64,000 nucleotides of DNA from an uncultured bacterium. GTDB taxonomy: Bacteria > Verrucomicrobiota > Verrucomicrobiia > Verrucomicrobiales > DEV007. The notes beneath the pieces are model-generated. The model saw nothing but the letters and a program-made list of their open reading frames with translations. It did not search any database and was not told the origin of the DNA. The position numbers and the translations under genes are program-made. Numbering within the stretch: the first letter of the stretch is position 1; every line of letters begins with the position of its first letter. The stretch is taken from contig CAXBMO010000005.1 in assembly GCA_963977015.1 (NCBI GenBank), positions 1-64,000 on the forward strand, in the 5' to 3' direction. This document shows positions 25,965 to 34,354 of the stretch, piece by piece.

Positions 25965-27059
25965 CTACTCTTTTCGGGTAACCACATCGCTGATGTTGGG
26001 CTCCCAAGGCATGGTCGCCACGTTCTCCAAGCCACCTTCGCCGACGAGACGATAGACATTGAGACTTGCGCCCTTAAACGCTGTCACCACGAGGAATTTC
26101 CCTTCCGGCGACAACGCGAAGCCCCACGGAATGGGATCCGTTGGAGTCAGCCCCAGCAATTCGACTTGGCCATCGCTCTTGATGCGGTAGCGCGAAATCC
26201 GGTCAAAATCACGTTTGTGGCCCCGAATTCCGGCGAAGAGATATTTTCCATCGGGCGTGATGACGATGTCCGAGGAACTCACTCCTTCCTTTGACTCATC
26301 CGGCCCCACCGCATCGCAAATCTGAACCATCTCCAACTGCCCTGACTTCAGCTTTCGGTAAACCGAGACACCCAGATTTTGCTCATTGCTGAAGTAGACG
26401 AAGGGAAGAGTCGGATGATAAGCCATATGCCGCGGCCCCGAGCCTTCAGGAGGGTTCGCATTCTTGGGTTCGAGCGCAGTCAGGGCACCGCTCTCTGGAT
26501 CAAACTGATACTGAAAGAGTGCGTTGGTGTCTTTGACATATGGGATGTAGACAAAGGAATTATCAATCGAAGGCAGCACACAATGCGCGTTCTTCCTTCC
26601 TTCATCCAAAAAGGCAACCCGCTTGGCCGGGACTCCGTCAGCATCAAGTTCATAGACGTCAACCTGCCCGCCACCGTAAGCACAGCCCAGAAGGAAATGA
26701 TTCGCCCGATCCAAGCTCAGGTAGGAATAGCCATGATTGAAATTCACTGTCGTGATTCGATCCTCGCCTTCTCGATCCAAGTGAATGACCGCTCCGGGTG
26801 CCTGCCCCGGCTTTCCGGATGGAACCGATACGTAAACCAGCGGTTTCTCCGGATGCGAAACGATGGTCGAACCGGCAAAGCCAAGATCGAGTTTCTCAAC
26901 TACCTCCAACGTTAGCCCGTTTGCATTGGATTTGGCCTCTACGATCCACAATTGGCTGGTGGTTCGGCTTGCCGAATAGATGCGGAACGAATCTTCAGCC
27001 ATCGCAGTAGCCAAGCCAGCAAGGGTGAGAAACGTGAAAAGTAATCGGAGGGGATTCAT
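25965..27059 (-). CDS. Lactonase family (Pgl/cycloisomerase 7-bladed propeller), secreted
   Basis: NAHCVL, GSGPRHMAYHP, DIVITPDGKYLF and PWGFALSPEG motifs; signal peptide. Confidence 0.9.
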   Translation of the reverse strand: MNPLRLLFTFLTLAGLATAMAEDSFRIYSASRTTSQLWIVEAKSNANGLTLEVVEKLDLGFAGSTIVSHPEKPLVYVSVPSGKPGQAPGAVIHLDREGEDRITTVNFNHGYSYLSLDRANHFLLGCAYGGGQVDVYELDADGVPAKRVAFLDEGRKNAHCVLPSIDNSFVYIPYVKDTNALFQYQFDPESGALTALEPKNANPPEGSGPRHMAYHPTLPFVYFSNEQNLGVSVYRKLKSGQLEMVQICDAVGPDESKEGVSSSDIVITPDGKYLFAGIRGHKRDFDRISRYRIKSDGQVELLGLTPTDPIPWGFALSPEGKFLVVTAFKGASLNVYRLVGEGGLENVATMPWEPNISDVVTRKE

Positions 27060-27117
27060 GCTCCACCATTTGGCTCAGTTTCGCGCTTCCACAAGTCGCT
27101 TCAGCCCAATTTTCGGG

Positions 27118-27207
27118 AAGTCTGATGGACGAAAAGGAACCATGGATCTCCAACTCTTTTCACCGGATGATCAAGAATATGTCCAACAATTTGCGAACTC
27201 CCAGTAA
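27118..27207 (+). pseudogene. Possible 3' remnant of an SHD1-like domain gene
   Basis: Translates KSDGRKGTMDLQLFSPDDQEYVQQFANSQ*, which resembles KNGRTYTIPVNKLSPPDQQFVAKW in the 38301 protein. Confidence 0.4.
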
Positions 27208-27274
27208 ACCAATTTTTGGTTGGCTTGGGTAGACAAAGGAAAAGACTCGGCTCTCCTTCCTGGTCGCAAAGCGT

Positions 27275-28852
27275 CTACTTCTTGCTATCCTCAGCCTGCT
27301 TCAGACGAGTCTTCAACCGATCGGAAATCGTCTCCAGAACTTTCACCCGGGCCAGGCGTTTGTCGTTGGCTTCGACCATGGTCCAAGGAGCAAACGTGGT
27401 GCTGGTCCGCTCAACCATGTCGTTGACAGCCAACTCGTAGTCCTCCCATTTCTCACGATTGCGCCAGTCTTCGTCGGTTAGTTTCCACTGCTTGTAGGGA
27501 ATGCGTTGACGTTCCTCAAATCGTCTCAACTGCTCCTCCTTGGTAATATGCATCCAGAATTTGCAGAGCACGATGCCATGACGAACAACCTGATCTTCGA
27601 AGTCGTTGATCTCAGCATAGGAACGCTTCCATTCACTCTCCGTCGCAAACCCTTCGACGCGCTCGACCAAAACCCGGCCATACCAGGACCGGTCGAAGAT
27701 GGTGAATCGGCCGGCTCGCGAAAGGTGCCTCCAGAATCGCCACAGGTAATGGTATTCCATCTCCTCATCCGTCGGCGCCGCAATTGGGATGACTTGGGAA
27801 GCCCGCGCATCAATCGCAGAGACCAGTCTCCGAATCGCGCCCCCTTTCCCGGCGGCATCCCATCCCTCAAACACCACGATCGTAGAGATGCCCAGGTCAT
27901 GAGCTTTCCGGGCCCGTTTGTTGAGTCGGCCCAGGTGATGTTCGAGCTGGTGCTTATAGTCCTTTTTCTCGAGCTTCTTTGTCATGTCCAGCCCACTTAA
28001 AATCGTGAGCGGACTCCCGTTTTGAATGACGCCGGTGCTGGCAAATTTATCGAGGGTGCTCGCAGACGTGGGTTCTCCCGAAGCAGCGAGCGACTCCTCA
28101 CGTTTCGCCTTGCGGGCCGCTTGCGCTTCCTTCATCAACTCAATTTCGTCGAAATGCTTGTGGAGCGATTCGAGCAGAATCCGGCCAACGGTGAGGGAGC
28201 GATATCGCTCATCAAACCCTTCCACAATGTGCCAGGACGCCTGCCCGTTCGACGTCCGCATAATGGTCCGCTCCGCCGTCGCCACAAACCCATCGTAACG
28301 CTTGAGGTGATCGCGGTCTGAGTCTTTTACCCTCCAGCTCGTGAGCGGATCCTTCTCCAGCTGTTCCAGACGTTTTTTCTGGGCTTTCTTTCCCAGGTGC
28401 ATCCAGAATTTGAGGATGAGCGCATTGCCATCCGCCAAGGTTCGCTCAAAGGTGGCGATTCGCTCCAACGCTTCATCAAGCTCCGGCTCTGTCGTCTTTT
28501 CGTAAACCCGATCCAAAATGTGGCGGTGATACCAGGAGCTTTGGAAAAGACCGATTCGACCGTTGGGGGGGAGGTCCCGCCAATACCGCCAATACTCAGG
28601 CCGCTCCCGCATTTCGTCAGATGGAGGTCCGTAAGCCCGCGTGATGATCCAGCGCGGATCAAGCCAGCCATTCAGCAAATTGATTGTCTCGCTTTTACCT
28701 GCGCCATCCACCCCGCCAAACACCACGATCACCGGGAACGAAACCGCGCGAAGGCGCTGCTGAGCCAGGAGAAGTTCCTCTCTCAGTTCCGGCACCTGAA
28801 GCTCGTAGTCCTCTTTCGATACCGTCCGTCCGATTTCAGCCGTTCTAAACAT
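27275..28852 (-). CDS. pap: Polyphosphate:AMP phosphotransferase (two-domain PPK2)
   Basis: Two PPK2 domains with Walker A GVDGAGK and EGWDAAGK, and FDRSWYGRVLVERVEG; start MFRTAEIG. Confidence 0.95.
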   Translation of the reverse strand: MFRTAEIGRTVSKEDYELQVPELREELLLAQQRLRAVSFPVIVVFGGVDGAGKSETINLLNGWLDPRWIITRAYGPPSDEMRERPEYWRYWRDLPPNGRIGLFQSSWYHRHILDRVYEKTTEPELDEALERIATFERTLADGNALILKFWMHLGKKAQKKRLEQLEKDPLTSWRVKDSDRDHLKRYDGFVATAERTIMRTSNGQASWHIVEGFDERYRSLTVGRILLESLHKHFDEIELMKEAQAARKAKREESLAASGEPTSASTLDKFASTGVIQNGSPLTILSGLDMTKKLEKKDYKHQLEHHLGRLNKRARKAHDLGISTIVVFEGWDAAGKGGAIRRLVSAIDARASQVIPIAAPTDEEMEYHYLWRFWRHLSRAGRFTIFDRSWYGRVLVERVEGFATESEWKRSYAEINDFEDQVVRHGIVLCKFWMHITKEEQLRRFEERQRIPYKQWKLTDEDWRNREKWEDYELAVNDMVERTSTTFAPWTMVEANDKRLARVKVLETISDRLKTRLKQAEDSKK

Positions 28853-28907
28853 AAATATCAGTTCGCATATTGAACCCGATCGGGAAATTACGCAATCTTC
28901 TGGTGCT

Positions 28908-29633
28908 TCAATCCGTGGAATGCCCGGAACTCGCCGCAGAAGATCTCCGCGTCCAAAACCTCCAAATCCCCAGCCCCAACACCAGAAGGGCAACAATCTG
29001 ATAGCCGGAAACGGTGCCGCCGATCACTTTGGGCGTTCCCCGGAGAAACTCGTGACCGAAGCGAAACACCCCGTAGGCAATCAGATACACGTGAAAGAGC
29101 TGCCCTTTTAAGCTGGGAAATTTTCGCAATTGAAACAGGACCAAAAGAACGCCGAGATTGAACATCAACTCGACCCCGGCGGCCGGCCAACGAGCCACTC
29201 CTGCCTCGTCGAGCATCGCATACCAGGTTTCCGCATCGCATTCAGCGCCCAAACAACAACCGTAACGCAAACAGCCAGCTCTCCCGGTCGCGATTCCAAG
29301 CGGAACCACGAATGCAAACCAGTCCCCCGTTGGCTCCTGATAATGGATCAGCTTCTTGGTTAACTCGACACCGGCATAGCCGCCTAACAACGCACCCAAA
29401 ATCGATTTCCCCGCAGCAATTTGCAGCCAGAAATCTTCCGCTCCAAAATGAAGCCAACCTTCAGCCAGGATATAAATGACTTTCGCCCCGACAAACGCTC
29501 CTGTGATTCCTCCGACAAAAATCCCAAACAAGGTCGGATCGGTCGTCTTCCATCGCCGATACCACAACCACGCGCCAAAGATGATGGCAGCCAGGGTGAT
29601 CCAGCCGTATGCGCCGGGTTCCGGCAATCTCAT
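28908..29633 (-). CDS. Prolipoprotein diacylglyceryl transferase (Lgt) family protein, divergent paralog
   Basis: Multi-TM protein; GAFVGAK, GKSILGALLGG, GRAGCLRYGCCLG and YGVFRFGHEFLR motifs; ATGA overlap with the radical SAM gene. Confidence 0.85.
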   Translation of the reverse strand: MRLPEPGAYGWITLAAIIFGAWLWYRRWKTTDPTLFGIFVGGITGAFVGAKVIYILAEGWLHFGAEDFWLQIAAGKSILGALLGGYAGVELTKKLIHYQEPTGDWFAFVVPLGIATGRAGCLRYGCCLGAECDAETWYAMLDEAGVARWPAAGVELMFNLGVLLVLFQLRKFPSLKGQLFHVYLIAYGVFRFGHEFLRGTPKVIGGTVSGYQIVALLVLGLGIWRFWTRRSSAASSGHSTD

Positions 29634-31006
29634 CCTGGCTTGGGATAGAGAGCAGCCCCTCCGTGAAGGTAATAGCGGCAGAACGAATCCAGCACGCCAT
29701 CAGGACGAATCACGTGCGTGCAGCAACGGTCGATTCGATCCTGATCCCAGTTCTCGGCATCCATGAACGGTTTGATGAAGAGTCGAAACGTCGAGCGCTC
29801 ATCCATCTCCAGGTCGTGGAGCATCTTCCCCAGCGGCTCGGACTCGCAACCACATTGGCTCAAATCCTCCAGACTGTATCGGACCCGATCGCCGATAAAT
29901 CCCTGGAGCGTCTTGAAATCGACAAAGTCGCTAATGGAGCGGGTTCCCTGATCGGTCTTCAACAAATACCCGATGGTCGCACAGTTGGGATCGCCACATG
30001 GCAGTGGTGTAAAATCCTCGAACCCGAGTTGGCTGCCGGATTGCTCGACGAGCCCGAGAATGATATCAGCGGTGTTGAGCCGGTTTCGCGGTTGTCCGCC
30101 ATCGGCACGACCACTCCCAAACATCGGCTGAAAACTAACGCCCCGGATGTGATCGTATCGCAGACCAAACTCAACCGCCTGCCACAGCTGATCCAGGTTT
30201 TCAGGAATCACCGTCATGGCCAGGGTTAACGGGATTCCTAACTCCGAGGCGCGTTCGATGGCCTGGATCTTGATTTTCCGTAAATCCGCGCCACGCAATT
30301 CCTGTTCACCGCCTTCGCCGGGACCGTCGAATTGGAGATAGAACTGAAAATTCCCGTATTGCATGCACTGCCCCAGCGCCTCACCAAATTCGTGATCTTT
30401 CGCCAATCGAACACCGTTGGAATTCACCAGCACATAGTCGATTCCGGGATTCTCGTGACACCACGCGATCAGTTCAAAAAACTCAGGATGAAGGGTCGGT
30501 TCACCACCGGAAAGCTGCAGAATTTCGATCTTTCCCTTGCGATCGATCACCCCCTGAATTCGCGTTTGGAGATCATTGAGAGGATGCGCCTGGAGATGAG
30601 CTCCCGTGCCCACAGGTGAATCCGCAAAACACGTTGGACAGGTAAGGTTACAGGAGTCGACAATCTCAATCAGAGCCAGACAGGTGGAAAGCTTGTGAAA
30701 CGGTTTGGGATCCTCGGGAAGCAATTTGAGGCGCGCGTTTCGACCGAGAAAACCGATCTGATCTCCCACCACGGGCAGCGCGCATCCGTCAGTCGATCCA
30801 GAGCAACATGGGTCTTCCCGGGCTCCGGTCGAAAGCCAGTAGAATCTGGCGTCAGAGCTAACGAGCGACTCAAAAAAACCATGATCGGGACATTGCTTGG
30901 TTAACCAAACCTGATCTCGTCCCTCGGAGTGTCGAGATTCCACAGACGCAGGAATTGGCGCGACACAAACCGGACAACGGCTCGTGGTTTCTTTGAGCGT
31001 CCTCAT
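29630..31006 (-). CDS. Radical SAM protein of the tetraether synthase (Tes/GDGT-MAS/Mss, MJ0619-like) family
   Basis: N-terminal TSRCPVC...KQCPDHG; CNLTCPTCFA; QLSGGEPTLHP; YLQFDG; IRGVSFQP; C-terminal FMDAENWD...RCCTHVIRPDGVLDSFC. Confidence 0.88.
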   Translation of the reverse strand: MRTLKETTSRCPVCVAPIPASVESRHSEGRDQVWLTKQCPDHGFFESLVSSDARFYWLSTGAREDPCCSGSTDGCALPVVGDQIGFLGRNARLKLLPEDPKPFHKLSTCLALIEIVDSCNLTCPTCFADSPVGTGAHLQAHPLNDLQTRIQGVIDRKGKIEILQLSGGEPTLHPEFFELIAWCHENPGIDYVLVNSNGVRLAKDHEFGEALGQCMQYGNFQFYLQFDGPGEGGEQELRGADLRKIKIQAIERASELGIPLTLAMTVIPENLDQLWQAVEFGLRYDHIRGVSFQPMFGSGRADGGQPRNRLNTADIILGLVEQSGSQLGFEDFTPLPCGDPNCATIGYLLKTDQGTRSISDFVDFKTLQGFIGDRVRYSLEDLSQCGCESEPLGKMLHDLEMDERSTFRLFIKPFMDAENWDQDRIDRCCTHVIRPDGVLDSFCRYYLHGGAALYPKPG

Positions 31007-31032
31007 GGAATCAGGCGTCCACGATCCCTCCC

Positions 31033-31725
31033 CTATCCATTTTTCTCCCGGCGATCACGACGATCGGTTGCCGTTTCAATAAACACGATCGCTTCGCCCA
31101 GACTGCAGGCATGGAGGCCAATGTTCTCCAACCCATGAGTTGCGTTGACAGCCTCGACAAAGGACGTCGCCAAAACTTGATTCTTGGTCACCGATTTTGA
31201 AATCTGATTGCGCGCATCCTTGGCCAATTTTCGAATTTCCCGCTTCCAGCCTGAGGCTTTTGCCGCTTGATCGGGATCATGTTGCGAAAACGACTCCAGT
31301 GTTCCCGCGAGCGCCCGCTGACTCAACTTCCATTGCTCTTCCAACACCCGGTTGCTATCAAAAGCAATCCAGGCTTCCAACTGAGAAGCTTGAGTCGAGA
31401 TTCTGCGGGCATCGTCACCAATCTGTTCCAAATCCGTCGCAATTCTGACCGCTCCGGTGACACCGCGTAAATCCGTCGCCACCGGCTGATATTTGATCAA
31501 AATGAGCTGGGCCTGCTTGTCAATTTCAGCCTCAAGCTGATCCAAATCTTTCTCCCGGCCTTTGGCCTCCGAGACATCGAGCTTTTGGTTGTGTTGCAGG
31601 AGCCGCCCGATCTCCCCGACCATGTCCAGCGCTATCTGTCCCATCGTCAATACAGCCCCCCTAAGGCTTTGGAGCTCCAATTCAAAGTCTTCTAGCGTAT
31701 GTGGTGGATGGGGATTTGGTGTCAT
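31033..31725 (-). CDS. phoU: PhoU-domain phosphate regulatory protein
   Basis: LDQLEAEID...YQPVATDLR...DLEQIGD; the second repeat (LENIGLHA) is degenerate. Start uncertain (31725 or 31740). Confidence 0.85.
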   Translation of the reverse strand: MTPNPHPPHTLEDFELELQSLRGAVLTMGQIALDMVGEIGRLLQHNQKLDVSEAKGREKDLDQLEAEIDKQAQLILIKYQPVATDLRGVTGAVRIATDLEQIGDDARRISTQASQLEAWIAFDSNRVLEEQWKLSQRALAGTLESFSQHDPDQAAKASGWKREIRKLAKDARNQISKSVTKNQVLATSFVEAVNATHGLENIGLHACSLGEAIVFIETATDRRDRREKNG

Positions 31726-31835
31726 CTCAGTTCCTAGCATCGCGCCTAGTCTATACCACGATATCCGCAAGGGAAGTGGAGAATTGTCCACGTCGAGAGC
31801 CTTTGCAATTTGGAGGCAGATACTCATAATGAGGA

Positions 31836-33143
31836 ATGCTCCTTCGAATTTTCGTTATTTTTGTAGCCTTGGTTAATCCACTCAACGCGGTGGACTGGCC
31901 GGAATTTCGCGGCAAGGATCGTACGGGAATCTGGAATCAACCTGGAGTCCTCCAATCGTTCCCTGAAGGAGACGCGCCGCTGAAGAGAGTCTGGACTGCT
32001 CCGGTTGGCGCAGGATACAGCGGACCGACGGTCGCGGGAGACCATGTGTATCTGATGGACCGCGGGCCGGCAGGAAACCGAGCTCAGCTTGAGCGAATCG
32101 TCTGTGTCGACCGAAAGACCGGCGCCCAATCCTGGGTTCACACCTATCCCTGCGTTTACTCCGACATCGGCTATGCGTATGGGCCTCGGGCAAGTGTCAC
32201 CATTCGAGATGGCAAAGCCTGGGCGCTCGGAACAATGGGGCATCTTCATTGCCTGGATGCAAAAACCGGGTCCGTGATTTGGGCTCATGATTTGCGGCAG
32301 AACTACACGGTTGACCTCCCCATTTGGGGACTCACGGCGTCTCCACTCGTGGTCGGCGACGTGGTGGTCGTCCAACTTGGCGCCATGGCCGACAACGCCT
32401 GTGTCGTGGCGTTTGAGAAAGACACCGGCAAGGAAGTCTGGCGCGCGTTTGACGACAAGGCATCCTACGTTTCGCCGATCATGATTCGGCAGGGAAAAAC
32501 CGACGTGATGGTCGTCTGGACGGGCTTTCGAATTGCGGGAATGAATCCGGCTGATGGGAGTGTCTATTGGGAACTCCCGACTCGTCCTGCCAAAATGCCG
32601 ATCAACGTTCCCGGTCCGGCGCTCAACGAGGATGGCACGCTCATGTTTTTGTCCGTTTTCTATGATGGTTCGCGAATGATCGAACTCGATCCGGACAAGC
32701 CTGCGGCCAAGGAACTCTGGCATCGTCAGGGAATCAACGAACGCAAGACCGACGCACTTCATTGCATGATCAGCCCGCCGTATCTTGCCGATGGCTACGT
32801 CTTCGGAATCGACAGCTATGGCCAAATGCGTTGCCTCGATCCCAAGACCGGTGACCGAATCTGGGAAGACCAAACGGCAGTTCCCTATGGGCGCTGGGGC
32901 ACAGCTTTCATGGTCAGAAACGGAGACCAAACCTGGATGCTCAACGAACGCGGCCAACTCATTATCGCCCGTCTGACGGAAAAAGGGTATGAGGAAATTG
33001 ATCGCGCGAATTTGATCGAGCCGACGACCCCGCTCAACCAGCGAAAGGAAGGCACCGTTCTCTGGTCTCATCCGGCCTTTGCCGGGACCCAGATTTTTGC
33101 GCGAAACGATCGCGAACTGATCTGCGTTGAGCTTGCTGAATAA
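31836..33143 (+). CDS. PQQ-binding-like beta-propeller (BamB-like) exported protein
   Basis: Signal peptide then DWPEFRG; repeated CLDAKTGxxxW blades; WSHPAFAG at the C-terminus. Confidence 0.92.
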   Translation: MLLRIFVIFVALVNPLNAVDWPEFRGKDRTGIWNQPGVLQSFPEGDAPLKRVWTAPVGAGYSGPTVAGDHVYLMDRGPAGNRAQLERIVCVDRKTGAQSWVHTYPCVYSDIGYAYGPRASVTIRDGKAWALGTMGHLHCLDAKTGSVIWAHDLRQNYTVDLPIWGLTASPLVVGDVVVVQLGAMADNACVVAFEKDTGKEVWRAFDDKASYVSPIMIRQGKTDVMVVWTGFRIAGMNPADGSVYWELPTRPAKMPINVPGPALNEDGTLMFLSVFYDGSRMIELDPDKPAAKELWHRQGINERKTDALHCMISPPYLADGYVFGIDSYGQMRCLDPKTGDRIWEDQTAVPYGRWGTAFMVRNGDQTWMLNERGQLIIARLTEKGYEEIDRANLIEPTTPLNQRKEGTVLWSHPAFAGTQIFARNDRELICVELAE

Positions 33144-33187
33144 GGGGGCCAAACAGCCCAGGCTCGATTAGCTCCAGGGTTCAAAAG

Positions 33188-34354
33188 TCAGGCGTGGTGA
33201 TCACGAATTCCACCACTCAAGGCGAACTGAAGATGCGGGGAATACAGCCCCGGCTCGAGCAGGAACGAATCGTGCCCTTTCTCTGAATGCACGGTAATAT
33301 GCATGGAAGGAACATCCGCTTTCTTGAGCGCCCTCGCCAGGTGCAGTTGCTGATCCGGATAAAAGCAGACGTCGGAGTCGATGCTGAAAACGAGCCATTG
33401 CTGCTCCTTACTCTTAGCGAAAAGGTCTTTCGCCGTTGTCGTCTGGGTGTCGTGAAAGGGGTCAAACTTCTGCCAAACCTCCAAAACCCGGAGATAGGTG
33501 TTTGCGTCAAATCGATTTACGAATTTGAGCCCGTGATGCAAGAGATAGGATTCCAGCGGGCTTTCCACCTTGTACCAGGCCAAGGCATCGTCGAACTTCG
33601 CCACATCGCGGCGAGCACGGCGCTCCATCGTCTTCAAACTTACAAACGTCTTGTGGCTGATCATCCGCGCCAGCGCCAGGCCACGATTCGGCGGCTCACC
33701 GTCGTAATAATCGCCTCCATTGAAGTTTTGATCGTTCTCAATCGCCAGCACCTGCTCAAAAATCACGATTTTCTGGAGTAGCGAAATCTCCAGGGCGCTG
33801 GCCAATGAAACCACAATCCCGACACGGTCCGGAAACAGAGTGGCAAAACTCAAACTCAACAATCCGCCAATCGAAGATCCAATCACCGCCTTCAACTTGT
33901 CGATCCCCAGCGCGTCCAATATCTGAGCCTGAGAGCGCACAATATCCGCCGCGCCAACGCTGGGGAAGGTGGAACCGTAAGGCTTTCCGGTATCCGGCGA
34001 GATGGAAGCCGGTCCCGAAGATCCATAACATCCTCCCAGGTAATTCGCGCAAATCACAAAGTGCTTATTGGTATCAATGGCCTTGCCCGGGCCAACAAAT
34101 GCATCCCACCATCCAAGGTGACATTCCTCACTCCACCACGGACAGTCTCCCGGCCCCTCGGGATTGATTCCGGTCAGGTGTTGCGTCCCGGAGAGCGCGT
34201 GAAAGACCAGGATCGCGTTGTCTTTCGCCGCATTGAGTTCTCCGTAGGTTTGATAGGCAACACCAAGATCGCGGAGCGATTCTCCATTGCTGAGCTGAAA
34301 ATCGCCACCGTCGTTGAGCTTCAGATAATGCGTTTGGAAGTCGTTTTCGATCAT
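33188..34354 (-). CDS. metX: Homoserine O-acetyltransferase
   Basis: YQTYGELNAAKDNAILVFHALSG, GGCYGSSGP, nucleophile GSSIGG, RFDANTY and GHDSFLL motifs. Confidence 0.92.
   Translation of the reverse strand: MIENDFQTHYLKLNDGGDFQLSNGESLRDLGVAYQTYGELNAAKDNAILVFHALSGTQHLTGINPEGPGDCPWWSEECHLGWWDAFVGPGKAIDTNKHFVICANYLGGCYGSSGPASISPDTGKPYGSTFPSVGAADIVRSQAQILDALGIDKLKAVIGSSIGGLLSLSFATLFPDRVGIVVSLASALEISLLQKIVIFEQVLAIENDQNFNGGDYYDGEPPNRGLALARMISHKTFVSLKTMERRARRDVAKFDDALAWYKVESPLESYLLHHGLKFVNRFDANTYLRVLEVWQKFDPFHDTQTTTAKDLFAKSKEQQWLVFSIDSDVCFYPDQQLHLARALKKADVPSMHITVHSEKGHDSFLLEPGLYSPHLQFALSGGIRDHHA

Follow-up and report, generated by a model that had tools for sequence, protein, structure and literature searches.

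A radical SAM enzyme of tetraether-synthase build next to an Lgt paralog: parts of a possible protein-lipidation module in Verrucomicrobiota

Here we describe a pair of adjoining genes from an uncultured bacterium of the Verrucomicrobiota (Verrucomicrobiales; DEV007). The window, i.e. the whole stretch of DNA that was analysed, comprises 64,000 nucleotides (positions 1 to 64,000 of contig CAXBMO010000005.1, assembly GCA_963977015.1). One gene codes for an enzyme of the radical SAM (S-adenosylmethionine) type, termed rSAM in the following, the other for a divergent Lgt-family membrane protein, termed Lgt-like after Lgt, the prolipoprotein diacylglyceryl transferase. The pair may well be one copy of a conserved Verrucomicrobiota membrane module which is dedicated to protein lipidation and lipid tailoring; we hold this reading with about even confidence. 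The module would consist of a cytoplasmic rSAM of the type of GDGT-MAS/Tes, the tetraether lipid synthase of archaea, and a stripped-down Lgt paralog, mostly accompanied by one to four small membrane proteins with a cysteine close to the C-terminus (Cys-tail proteins). Judged by its gene content, it probably builds an undescribed lipid-protein modification. It would be an undescribed variant assembled from two known kinds of enzyme, and its gene-neighbourhood signature is well supported. No paper linking Lgt to a Tes-like rSAM was found in the literature; survey supplements which list bacterial homologs were outside this search. In the 2026 review PMC13459092 on lipid-modifying radical SAM enzymes the terms Lgt, diacylglyceryl and lipoprotein do not appear.

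The pairing is recurrent. A scan of one genome per species yielded 478 encoded relatives of rSAM; the locus counts given here refer to the 80 best loci. Lgt-like followed rSAM in the same orientation in 70 of the 80 loci, or in 70 of the 74 which had at least 800 base pairs (bp) of downstream sequence. The two genes were at most 100 bp apart in 43 of the linked loci and 100-600 bp apart in 13; in the other 14 the distance was greater. Six of the ten unlinked loci end within 651 bases of rSAM. In another one, L025, Lgt-like is upstream of and divergent from rSAM, and in L005, L023 and L054 Lgt-like was absent within about 8 kilobases (kb) of rSAM. The genomes of these four loci carry a strong Lgt-like (319-376 bits), in three of them (L005, L023, L054) unlinked on another contig. 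An rSAM of Tes architecture and a spare protein of the Lgt fold are inherited together. Recurrent linkage to lgt had been named as a check in the initial annotation of this DNA, and it was found. The genome of L005 has a further arrangement (L094:268-2223), in which Lgt-like follows a different radical SAM protein of 403 residues with best matches of the NirJ/AhbC/SPASM type (51-65 bits). Therefore, the Lgt paralog can pair with another radical SAM type.

Among the matches listed, homologs of rSAM were 59-90% identical (60-77% for near-full-length matches) and those of Lgt-like 50-74%. Homologs of both proteins are mostly labelled Verrucomicrobiota. According to the record labels, a few loci belong to other phyla (Oligoflexia, Bdellovibrionota, Planctomycetota and an acidobacterial metagenome-assembled genome). 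Cultured hosts which carry the full module include Chthoniobacter flavus Ellin428 and Haloferula species, all of them harmless.

The third component emerged when open reading frames (ORFs) within 6 kb of rSAM were clustered by BLAST similarity. Besides shadow ORFs, the recurrent neighbours were small hydrophobic proteins encoded directly upstream of rSAM or between rSAM and Lgt-like. They were counted by a strict test, which required a same-strand ORF of 35-260 residues that closes with 18 or more hydrophobic residues, the last 16 of them uncharged, then [G/A/S]-C and 2-16 further residues. Next to the pair 82 of 771 same-strand ORFs passed, distributed over 55 of the 80 loci with one to four copies each. 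Of the controls, one passed among 3118 same-strand ORFs from other parts of the loci, and none among 744 antisense ORFs in the same regions. Two to four copies were present in 20 loci, and 48 loci contained all three components. Because the strict filter itself demanded a cysteine, clusters defined by BLAST alone were checked as well. Here, [GAS]C was located 2-20 residues from the end in 42 of 42 members, compared with 503 of 3850 in the background. The small Cys-containing peptides which the initial annotation had suggested looking for in the neighbourhood are recurrent, with 55 of 80 relative loci; in this window none is encoded beside the pair. That annotation had also left it at lipid transfer to a protein or another acceptor, and of these two branches the Cys-tail genes favour the protein.

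The Cys-tail ORFs share features for which they had not been selected. G occupies position -1 in 72 of 81 and F position -3 in 38 of 81. Going upstream, the first charged residue is K or R in 79 of 81, most often 23 residues before the cysteine. The cysteine is followed by 3-16 residues, mostly 5-11, and the end is often an aromatic and then a basic residue. The layout is K/R, a hydrophobic helix of about 22 residues, F-[A/G]-G-C and a short tail. Otherwise the proteins are diverse (mean column identity 9%); their bulk is transmembrane helix, and no significant family match was obtained in Pfam or NCBIfam. As a candidate family for the small proteins NF058595, a 'lipo-invert C-terminal anchoring domain', was considered and rejected, as two of ten proteins matched at a non-significant E of 0.5-0.65. 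With the 82 Cys-tail members at E<=0.1, 50 families were found, and NF058595 did not appear in the 25 that were listed; nor was there a match over the cut-off in the window's own genome.

In the form given in PMC12462473 the lipobox consensus reads [LVI][ASTVI][GAS]C. From sequence, the order K/R, helix, F-[A/G]-G-C appears to be the layout of a lipoprotein signal peptide plus lipobox. The Cys-tail proteins would in this respect resemble Lgt substrates. The difference is one of position: in lipoproteins the motif is on the N-terminal signal peptide ahead of the mature domain, whereas in the Cys-tail proteins it is on the last helix. Some members have an N-terminal zinc ribbon (Pfam) and either one or three helices before the cysteine. 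Such a ribbon is cytoplasmic. Because of the cytoplasmic ribbon, the one or three helices and the positive-inside rule, we infer that the cysteine is at the periplasmic face, i.e. on the side to which the active site of Lgt faces according to Mao et al. (PMC4728403).

Two kinds of gene recur or occur near the module in subsets of relatives. A membrane protein of about 131 residues which ends in ...LFYPR and is without the Cys motif (BLAST cluster 14; L028:7365-7760 and 11 other loci) is encoded just upstream of a Cys-tail gene in 12 loci, most of them labelled Chthoniobacterales or Spartobacteria; it had no match in Pfam or NCBIfam. A fusion of DUF116 with a polyprenyl synthetase, about 580 residues long, was present in 13 loci (BLAST cluster 12; L012:5684-7426 and 12 others), with the gene at a median of about 590 bp upstream of rSAM. 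Its adjacency could indicate an isoprenoid lipid or could be lineage synteny. Further, in the close relative L006 (9428-11227) a regulator, by eye likely of the TetR type, and a beta-ketoacyl synthase of the FabF type (183 bits with Pfam ketoacyl-synt) are encoded between rSAM and Lgt-like. The synthase would link the module to fatty-acid synthesis.

What kind of enzyme is rSAM? The motifs listed in the initial annotation are all found in the translation of 458 residues, at C11xxC14...C39xxH42, C119xxxC123xxC126, Y223LQFDG228, R288GVSFQP294 and R427CC429...P435DG437...F442C443, and most of them do not vary among 18 aligned members of the family. Pfam assigned a Zn_ribbon_HMPTM domain of the HMPTM/MJ0619 type (PF23545, 53.3 bits) and Radical_SAM (PF04055, 56.6 bits). 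The layout is an N-terminal rubredoxin-like zinc ribbon, a Cys triad, the radical SAM core and a C-terminal Cys-rich domain. Against solved structures the sole strong sequence match was GDGT-MAS (7tol/7tom, E 2.1e-35) in three stretches, namely the ribbon at the N-terminus, the core, and at the C-terminal end the RCC.H..FC segment. The AlphaFold2 model had a mean predicted local distance difference test score (pLDDT) of 70.1. Foldseek aligned it with 7tol over about 500 columns (E 1.2e-27, TMq 0.74), and SkfB came next with TMq 0.38. The initial annotation had placed the enzyme with MJ0619, GDGT-MAS and Tes, and these matches bear that out.

The domains were compared one by one. The ribbon, C11X2C14X24C39X2H42, has C11, C14 and C39 invariant in the 18 sequences, and residues 5-56 align to residues 23-70 of 7tol; the rubredoxin site of GDGT-MAS is given as C9X2C12X20C33X2H36 (PMC9433317). 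In GDGT-MAS the N-terminal [4Fe-4S] cluster is held by three Cys (C73, C77, C80) and a His (PMC9433317). The triad of rSAM consists of C67, C68 and C75, of which C67 is invariant and C75 is present in at least 90% of the sequences. Its spacing is unlike that in GDGT-MAS, in a region which is variable and of low confidence in the model. C119, C123 and C126 of the core are invariant in the 18 sequences. The C-terminal domain has seven conserved Cys (C337, C342, C385, C387, C428, C429, C443), with C428, C429 and C443 invariant. Residues 412-446 (FMDA..RCCTH..FCRYY) align to residues 459-493 of 7tol, with low pLDDT there. In GDGT-MAS the C-terminal auxiliary cluster adjoins the lipid pocket (PMC9433317). 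rSAM and GDGT-MAS/Tes have the same order of ribbon, CxxxCxxC core and C-terminal Cys-rich cluster domain; the Cys triad of rSAM between ribbon and core may be a counterpart of the N-terminal cluster site. They differ in that identity is only about 23-30%, that the host of rSAM is a bacterium with ester lipids, and that rSAM is of a type paired with an Lgt paralog, a pairing which was not found described for Tes in the papers searched.

Among the NCBIfam models TrsS (NF045646) scored best with 224.9 bits over residues 104-448; apart from TrsS and Tes, all radical SAM families were below 35 bits. TrsS is a radical SAM (seleno)protein family, whereas the rSAM of the window is not a selenoprotein; a review table (PMC13188914) lists the TrsS name without a function. 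As a side observation, one ortholog of rSAM (G497:C86:174199-175530, 63% identical) contains a single in-frame TGA. As TrsS, the closest NCBIfam family, comprises selenoproteins, this TGA could encode selenocysteine instead of marking a break. By sequence, rSAM is of Tes-type build, yet an equivalog of no curated family, because the match extends over the full architecture but all scores are under the NCBIfam cut-offs.

The initial annotation had also likened the motif layout to Mss, and this part did not hold. For Mss from Thermotoga and Thermoanaerobacter, likewise a radical SAM enzyme, the coupling of two fatty-acid tails has been demonstrated (PMC13159169). Because that paper reports no Tes homologs in Mss-bearing organisms, Mss is a radical SAM enzyme different from Tes and not a Tes homolog. 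The likeness is limited to the chemistry: tail coupling is the kind of reaction which is proposed for the module.

The partner protein, Lgt-like, scored 83.7 bits with PF01790 (cut-off 24.9) and 44.4 bits with the Lgt model TIGR00544, below the equivalog cut-off of 118.9. A canonical Lgt is encoded elsewhere in the same genome on contig 28 (PF01790, 205.1 bits). The two are 24% identical when aligned, and tblastn of the genome with Lgt-like as query did not find the canonical gene at E 1e-3. Because of the separate canonical Lgt, the Lgt-like copy is, as far as gene content goes, a spare Lgt; it is non-canonical, as had been proposed in the initial annotation. The AlphaFold2 model (pLDDT 88.3) had E. 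coli Lgt (5azb) as sole PDB fold match at E<=0.001 (E 1.5e-6, prob 1.00, TMq 0.62), i.e. it has the seven-helix Lgt fold. Residues were mapped to E. coli numbering via the genome's canonical Lgt and the motif string in PMC4728403. Y26, R143, Y235, R239, E243 and R246 are kept as Y9, R118, Y187, R191, E195 (in at least 90%) and R198. In the account of Mao et al. (PMC4728403) this Arg/Tyr/Glu network is essential.

Other parts of the protein are rebuilt. The Lgt signature G142RLGNFINGELWG154 corresponds to G117RAGCLRYGCCLG129, with G, R, G, G and G kept. C121, C126, C127 and C132 in this region are conserved in at least 90% of the family. The resulting pattern, G-R-x-G-C-x4-C-C-x4-C, replaces polar signature residues on what in Lgt is the periplasm-facing side. 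These cysteines could form disulfides or a metal site, or could be catalytic thiols. The periplasmic head is absent: all Lgt-like rows have gaps of about 41 and 13 columns opposite the canonical insert. Thus, Lgt-like shares with E. coli Lgt (5AZB) the fold and the equivalents of R143, R239, E243, R246, Y26 and Y235, and differs by the four conserved signature-region Cys, the missing head and the missing residues discussed below. Lgt-like belongs to the Lgt superfamily, but the surroundings of its active site are altered, and ordinary Lgt activity should not be assumed. A complex prediction of rSAM with Lgt-like returned a score of 0.00 ('no answer'), which speaks neither for nor against binding. 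A search of longer proteins found no fusion of Lgt-like to a radical SAM protein, which is weak evidence of absence. It did find six proteins of about 605 residues (P0241-P0246) in which a beta-lactamase-family serine hydrolase (PF00144) is fused C-terminally to Lgt-like. A PF00144 hydrolase is also encoded near the module in six loci, in at least four directly after Lgt-like (downstream in L038, L039 and L041), and in L092:2233-3342. Possibly this hydrolase could be a tail peptidase or an esterase of the module.

How might the components cooperate? The Lgt paralog would transfer a glyceryl-lipid onto the cysteine of a Cys-tail protein at the periplasmic face. rSAM would work on lipid tails from the cytoplasmic face, as Tes does. 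Either it would prepare a tail-coupled, i.e. macrocyclic or membrane-spanning, donor lipid which an ordinary Lgt could not use, or it would remodel the tails of a lipid already attached to the protein. A narrower version is a second protein-lipidation route, in which the Lgt paralog adds a macrocyclic or membrane-spanning lipid, C-C-coupled by rSAM, to the cysteine of a mini-protein. This version we consider unlikely. If it were true, a bolalipid bound to protein would result, which ordinary lipid extraction would miss.

[quoted passage not shown] The Lgt paralog and the Cys-tailed mini-proteins give this rSAM subfamily a concrete context, that of a protein-linked instead of a free lipid. If the module operates as proposed, lipoproteins would have a new type of anchor and the Lgt fold a second role. 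This would also caution against taking every bacterial Tes homolog for a brGDGT synthase.

Several observations weigh against a module for protein lipidation and lipid tailoring. First, a Cys-tail ORF was not detected by the strict test in 25 of the 80 loci, there is none beside the pair in this window, and the window's own genome yielded only a weak candidate. Second, Lgt-like has lost residues of the Lgt active site. His103 is replaced by Leu79 (canonical GGMASHGG aligns to AGKSILGA), and a His is absent at this column from all 22 Lgt-like rows aligned. Of the E. coli mutants H103A/N/Q/R/Y none complemented (PMC4728403). In the signature N146 is replaced by C121 and E151 by C126. Because His103, Asn146 and Glu151 are missing, diacylglyceryl transfer from phosphatidylglycerol by Lgt-like is only putative, and the donor may be another lipid. 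The loss of the phosphatidylglycerol-selecting Glu151, of Asn146, of His103 and of the head would fit a changed donor, and would equally permit a changed reaction. Third, rSAM remained below the equivalog cut-offs of Tes (NF045702; 165 bits against 450) and of TrsS (cut-off 490). Bacterial Tes homologs are known only from sequence surveys, and activity is demonstrated for none (PMC8941075, PMC11868695). Fourth, the syntenic relative L005 retains rSAM without an adjoining Lgt-like (PPK2, which follows the pair in the window, is not there either). Finally, the distribution is patchy. Among 150 further genomes drawn from the order, 31 had an ortholog of rSAM (E<1e-90), and 0 of 400 further genomes drawn from the phylum had a match at E<=1e-60.

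The genome of the window (assembly completeness 95%) was searched for an acceptor. The strict motif was found in 2 of 63807 ORFs, neither of them convincing. A search with a C-terminal hidden Markov model gave a best E of 0.16, and tblastn with 12 small proteins from the eight closest loci a best E of 0.40. A relaxed scan returned 26 matches, of which only C11:176157-176480 (contig 11, minus strand, outside the window) resembles a real three-helix mini-protein. It has 107 residues with three predicted helices and ends in ...RWKTK, 17 hydrophobic residues, F-G-C and 12 tail residues. With the ORF immediately upstream of rSAM in L074 it forms a weak pair of reciprocal best hits (E 0.0074 and 0.041). 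As a lead only, it may be an unlinked acceptor for the pair of the window. Because none is encoded beside the pair, the acceptor would be encoded elsewhere, missing from the assembly or lost. The window copy is atypical in that no acceptor gene adjoins the pair.

The main rival is a pathway for free lipids. There, rSAM would couple or modify acyl tails of phospholipids, as Tes does with archaeal lipids. Lgt-like would bind or present a glyceryl moiety or transfer it to a non-protein acceptor, and the small proteins would be accessory subunits. GDGT-MAS binds lipids without head-group specificity, even E. coli phospholipids (PMC9433317), which suits such a pathway. So do the window and the 25 loci without a detected Cys-tail gene, and the loss from Lgt-like of His103 and of Glu151, the residue that selects phosphatidylglycerol. 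The FabF-type ketoacyl synthase between the two genes in L006 and the DUF116-polyprenyl synthetase gene upstream in 13 loci point in the same direction. However, free lipids leave unexplained why the small proteins have as their sole strictly conserved feature a cysteine in a lipobox-like setting, where a signal-peptide-like helix ends on the periplasmic side, and why up to four small genes are present per locus. We rate a free-lipid pathway as possible, though somewhat unlikely.

Second, the small proteins might be precursors in a maturation similar to that of RiPPs, peptides which are made on the ribosome and modified after translation. rSAM would then introduce, e.g., a thioether or a C-C crosslink at or near the cysteine, with Lgt-like as a membrane scaffold or an exporter. 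RiPP clusters typically have several copies of a small gene immediately upstream of the gene for a radical SAM enzyme, and 20 loci have two to four copies; the PF00144 hydrolase fused to or next to Lgt-like in some relatives could be a tail peptidase. Yet the SPASM/twitch architecture of peptide maturases is absent from rSAM, which matches over its whole length the lipid enzyme GDGT-MAS. In the inferred topology the cysteine is periplasmic and away from the cytoplasmic rSAM, and the small proteins are mostly transmembrane helix and poorly conserved. A RiPP-like maturation is improbable. Last, that the pair is a remnant or a redundant housekeeping copy in this genome, with Lgt-like a second ordinary Lgt for normal lipoproteins and its adjacency to rSAM devoid of function, would agree with the missing adjacent acceptor gene, the phosphate-related flanks in place of module genes and the patchy distribution, but is hardly credible in view of two intact ORFs conserved among many homologs, of linkage in 70 of 74 assessable loci and of an Lgt-like so distant from the genome's own Lgt and without residues needed for ordinary Lgt function.

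In the window the genes for a PhoU-like protein, rSAM, Lgt-like and PPK2 are arranged head to tail, all on the minus strand (Table 1). The junction of the pair reads ...CCAGGATGAGATTGCC..., in which the ATG of Lgt-like is 29633-29631 and the TGA of rSAM 29632-29630. The ATGA at 29633-29630 is therefore common to the stop codon of rSAM and the start codon of Lgt-like. This overlap, which the initial annotation had reported, was read directly in the sequence. Because of it we infer that rSAM and Lgt-like are translationally coupled. A scan of 26800-33400 for promoters and terminators gave hits at chance level only, and an Rfam scan of 26000-34000 gave no match.

Table 1. Features of the region around the gene pair; coordinates are those of the window.
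Feature	Coordinates	Strand	Length	Basis
Radical SAM gene (rSAM)	29630..31006	-	458 aa	ORF list, Pfam PF23545 + PF04055
Lgt-like gene (divergent Lgt-family membrane protein)	28908..29633	-	241 aa	ORF list, PF01790
ATGA overlap, rSAM stop / Lgt-like start	29630..29633	-		sequence reading
PhoU-like gene	31033..31827	-		Pfam PhoU 80.4 bits; TIGR02135 106.3 bits vs cut-off 130.25
Two-domain PPK2 (polyphosphate:AMP phosphotransferase)	ORF 27275..28996	-		PF03976 442.8 bits; TIGR03708 654.9 vs cut-off 547.65

The initial annotation had seen no substrate gene adjacent to the pair, and indeed the flanks are the PhoU-like and the PPK2-family gene. The PhoU-like gene ends 26 bases upstream of rSAM on the same strand, at the site where relatives have small Cys-tail genes. 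The order PhoU-rSAM is repeated in the relative L005 and the order with PPK2 in L007. PhoU and PPK2 were considered as members of the module and rejected, as this gene order is confined to these two closest relatives. The match to the PPK2 family sets in at residue 50 of the ORF as listed; because of this, the true start of PPK2 is probably near 28852.

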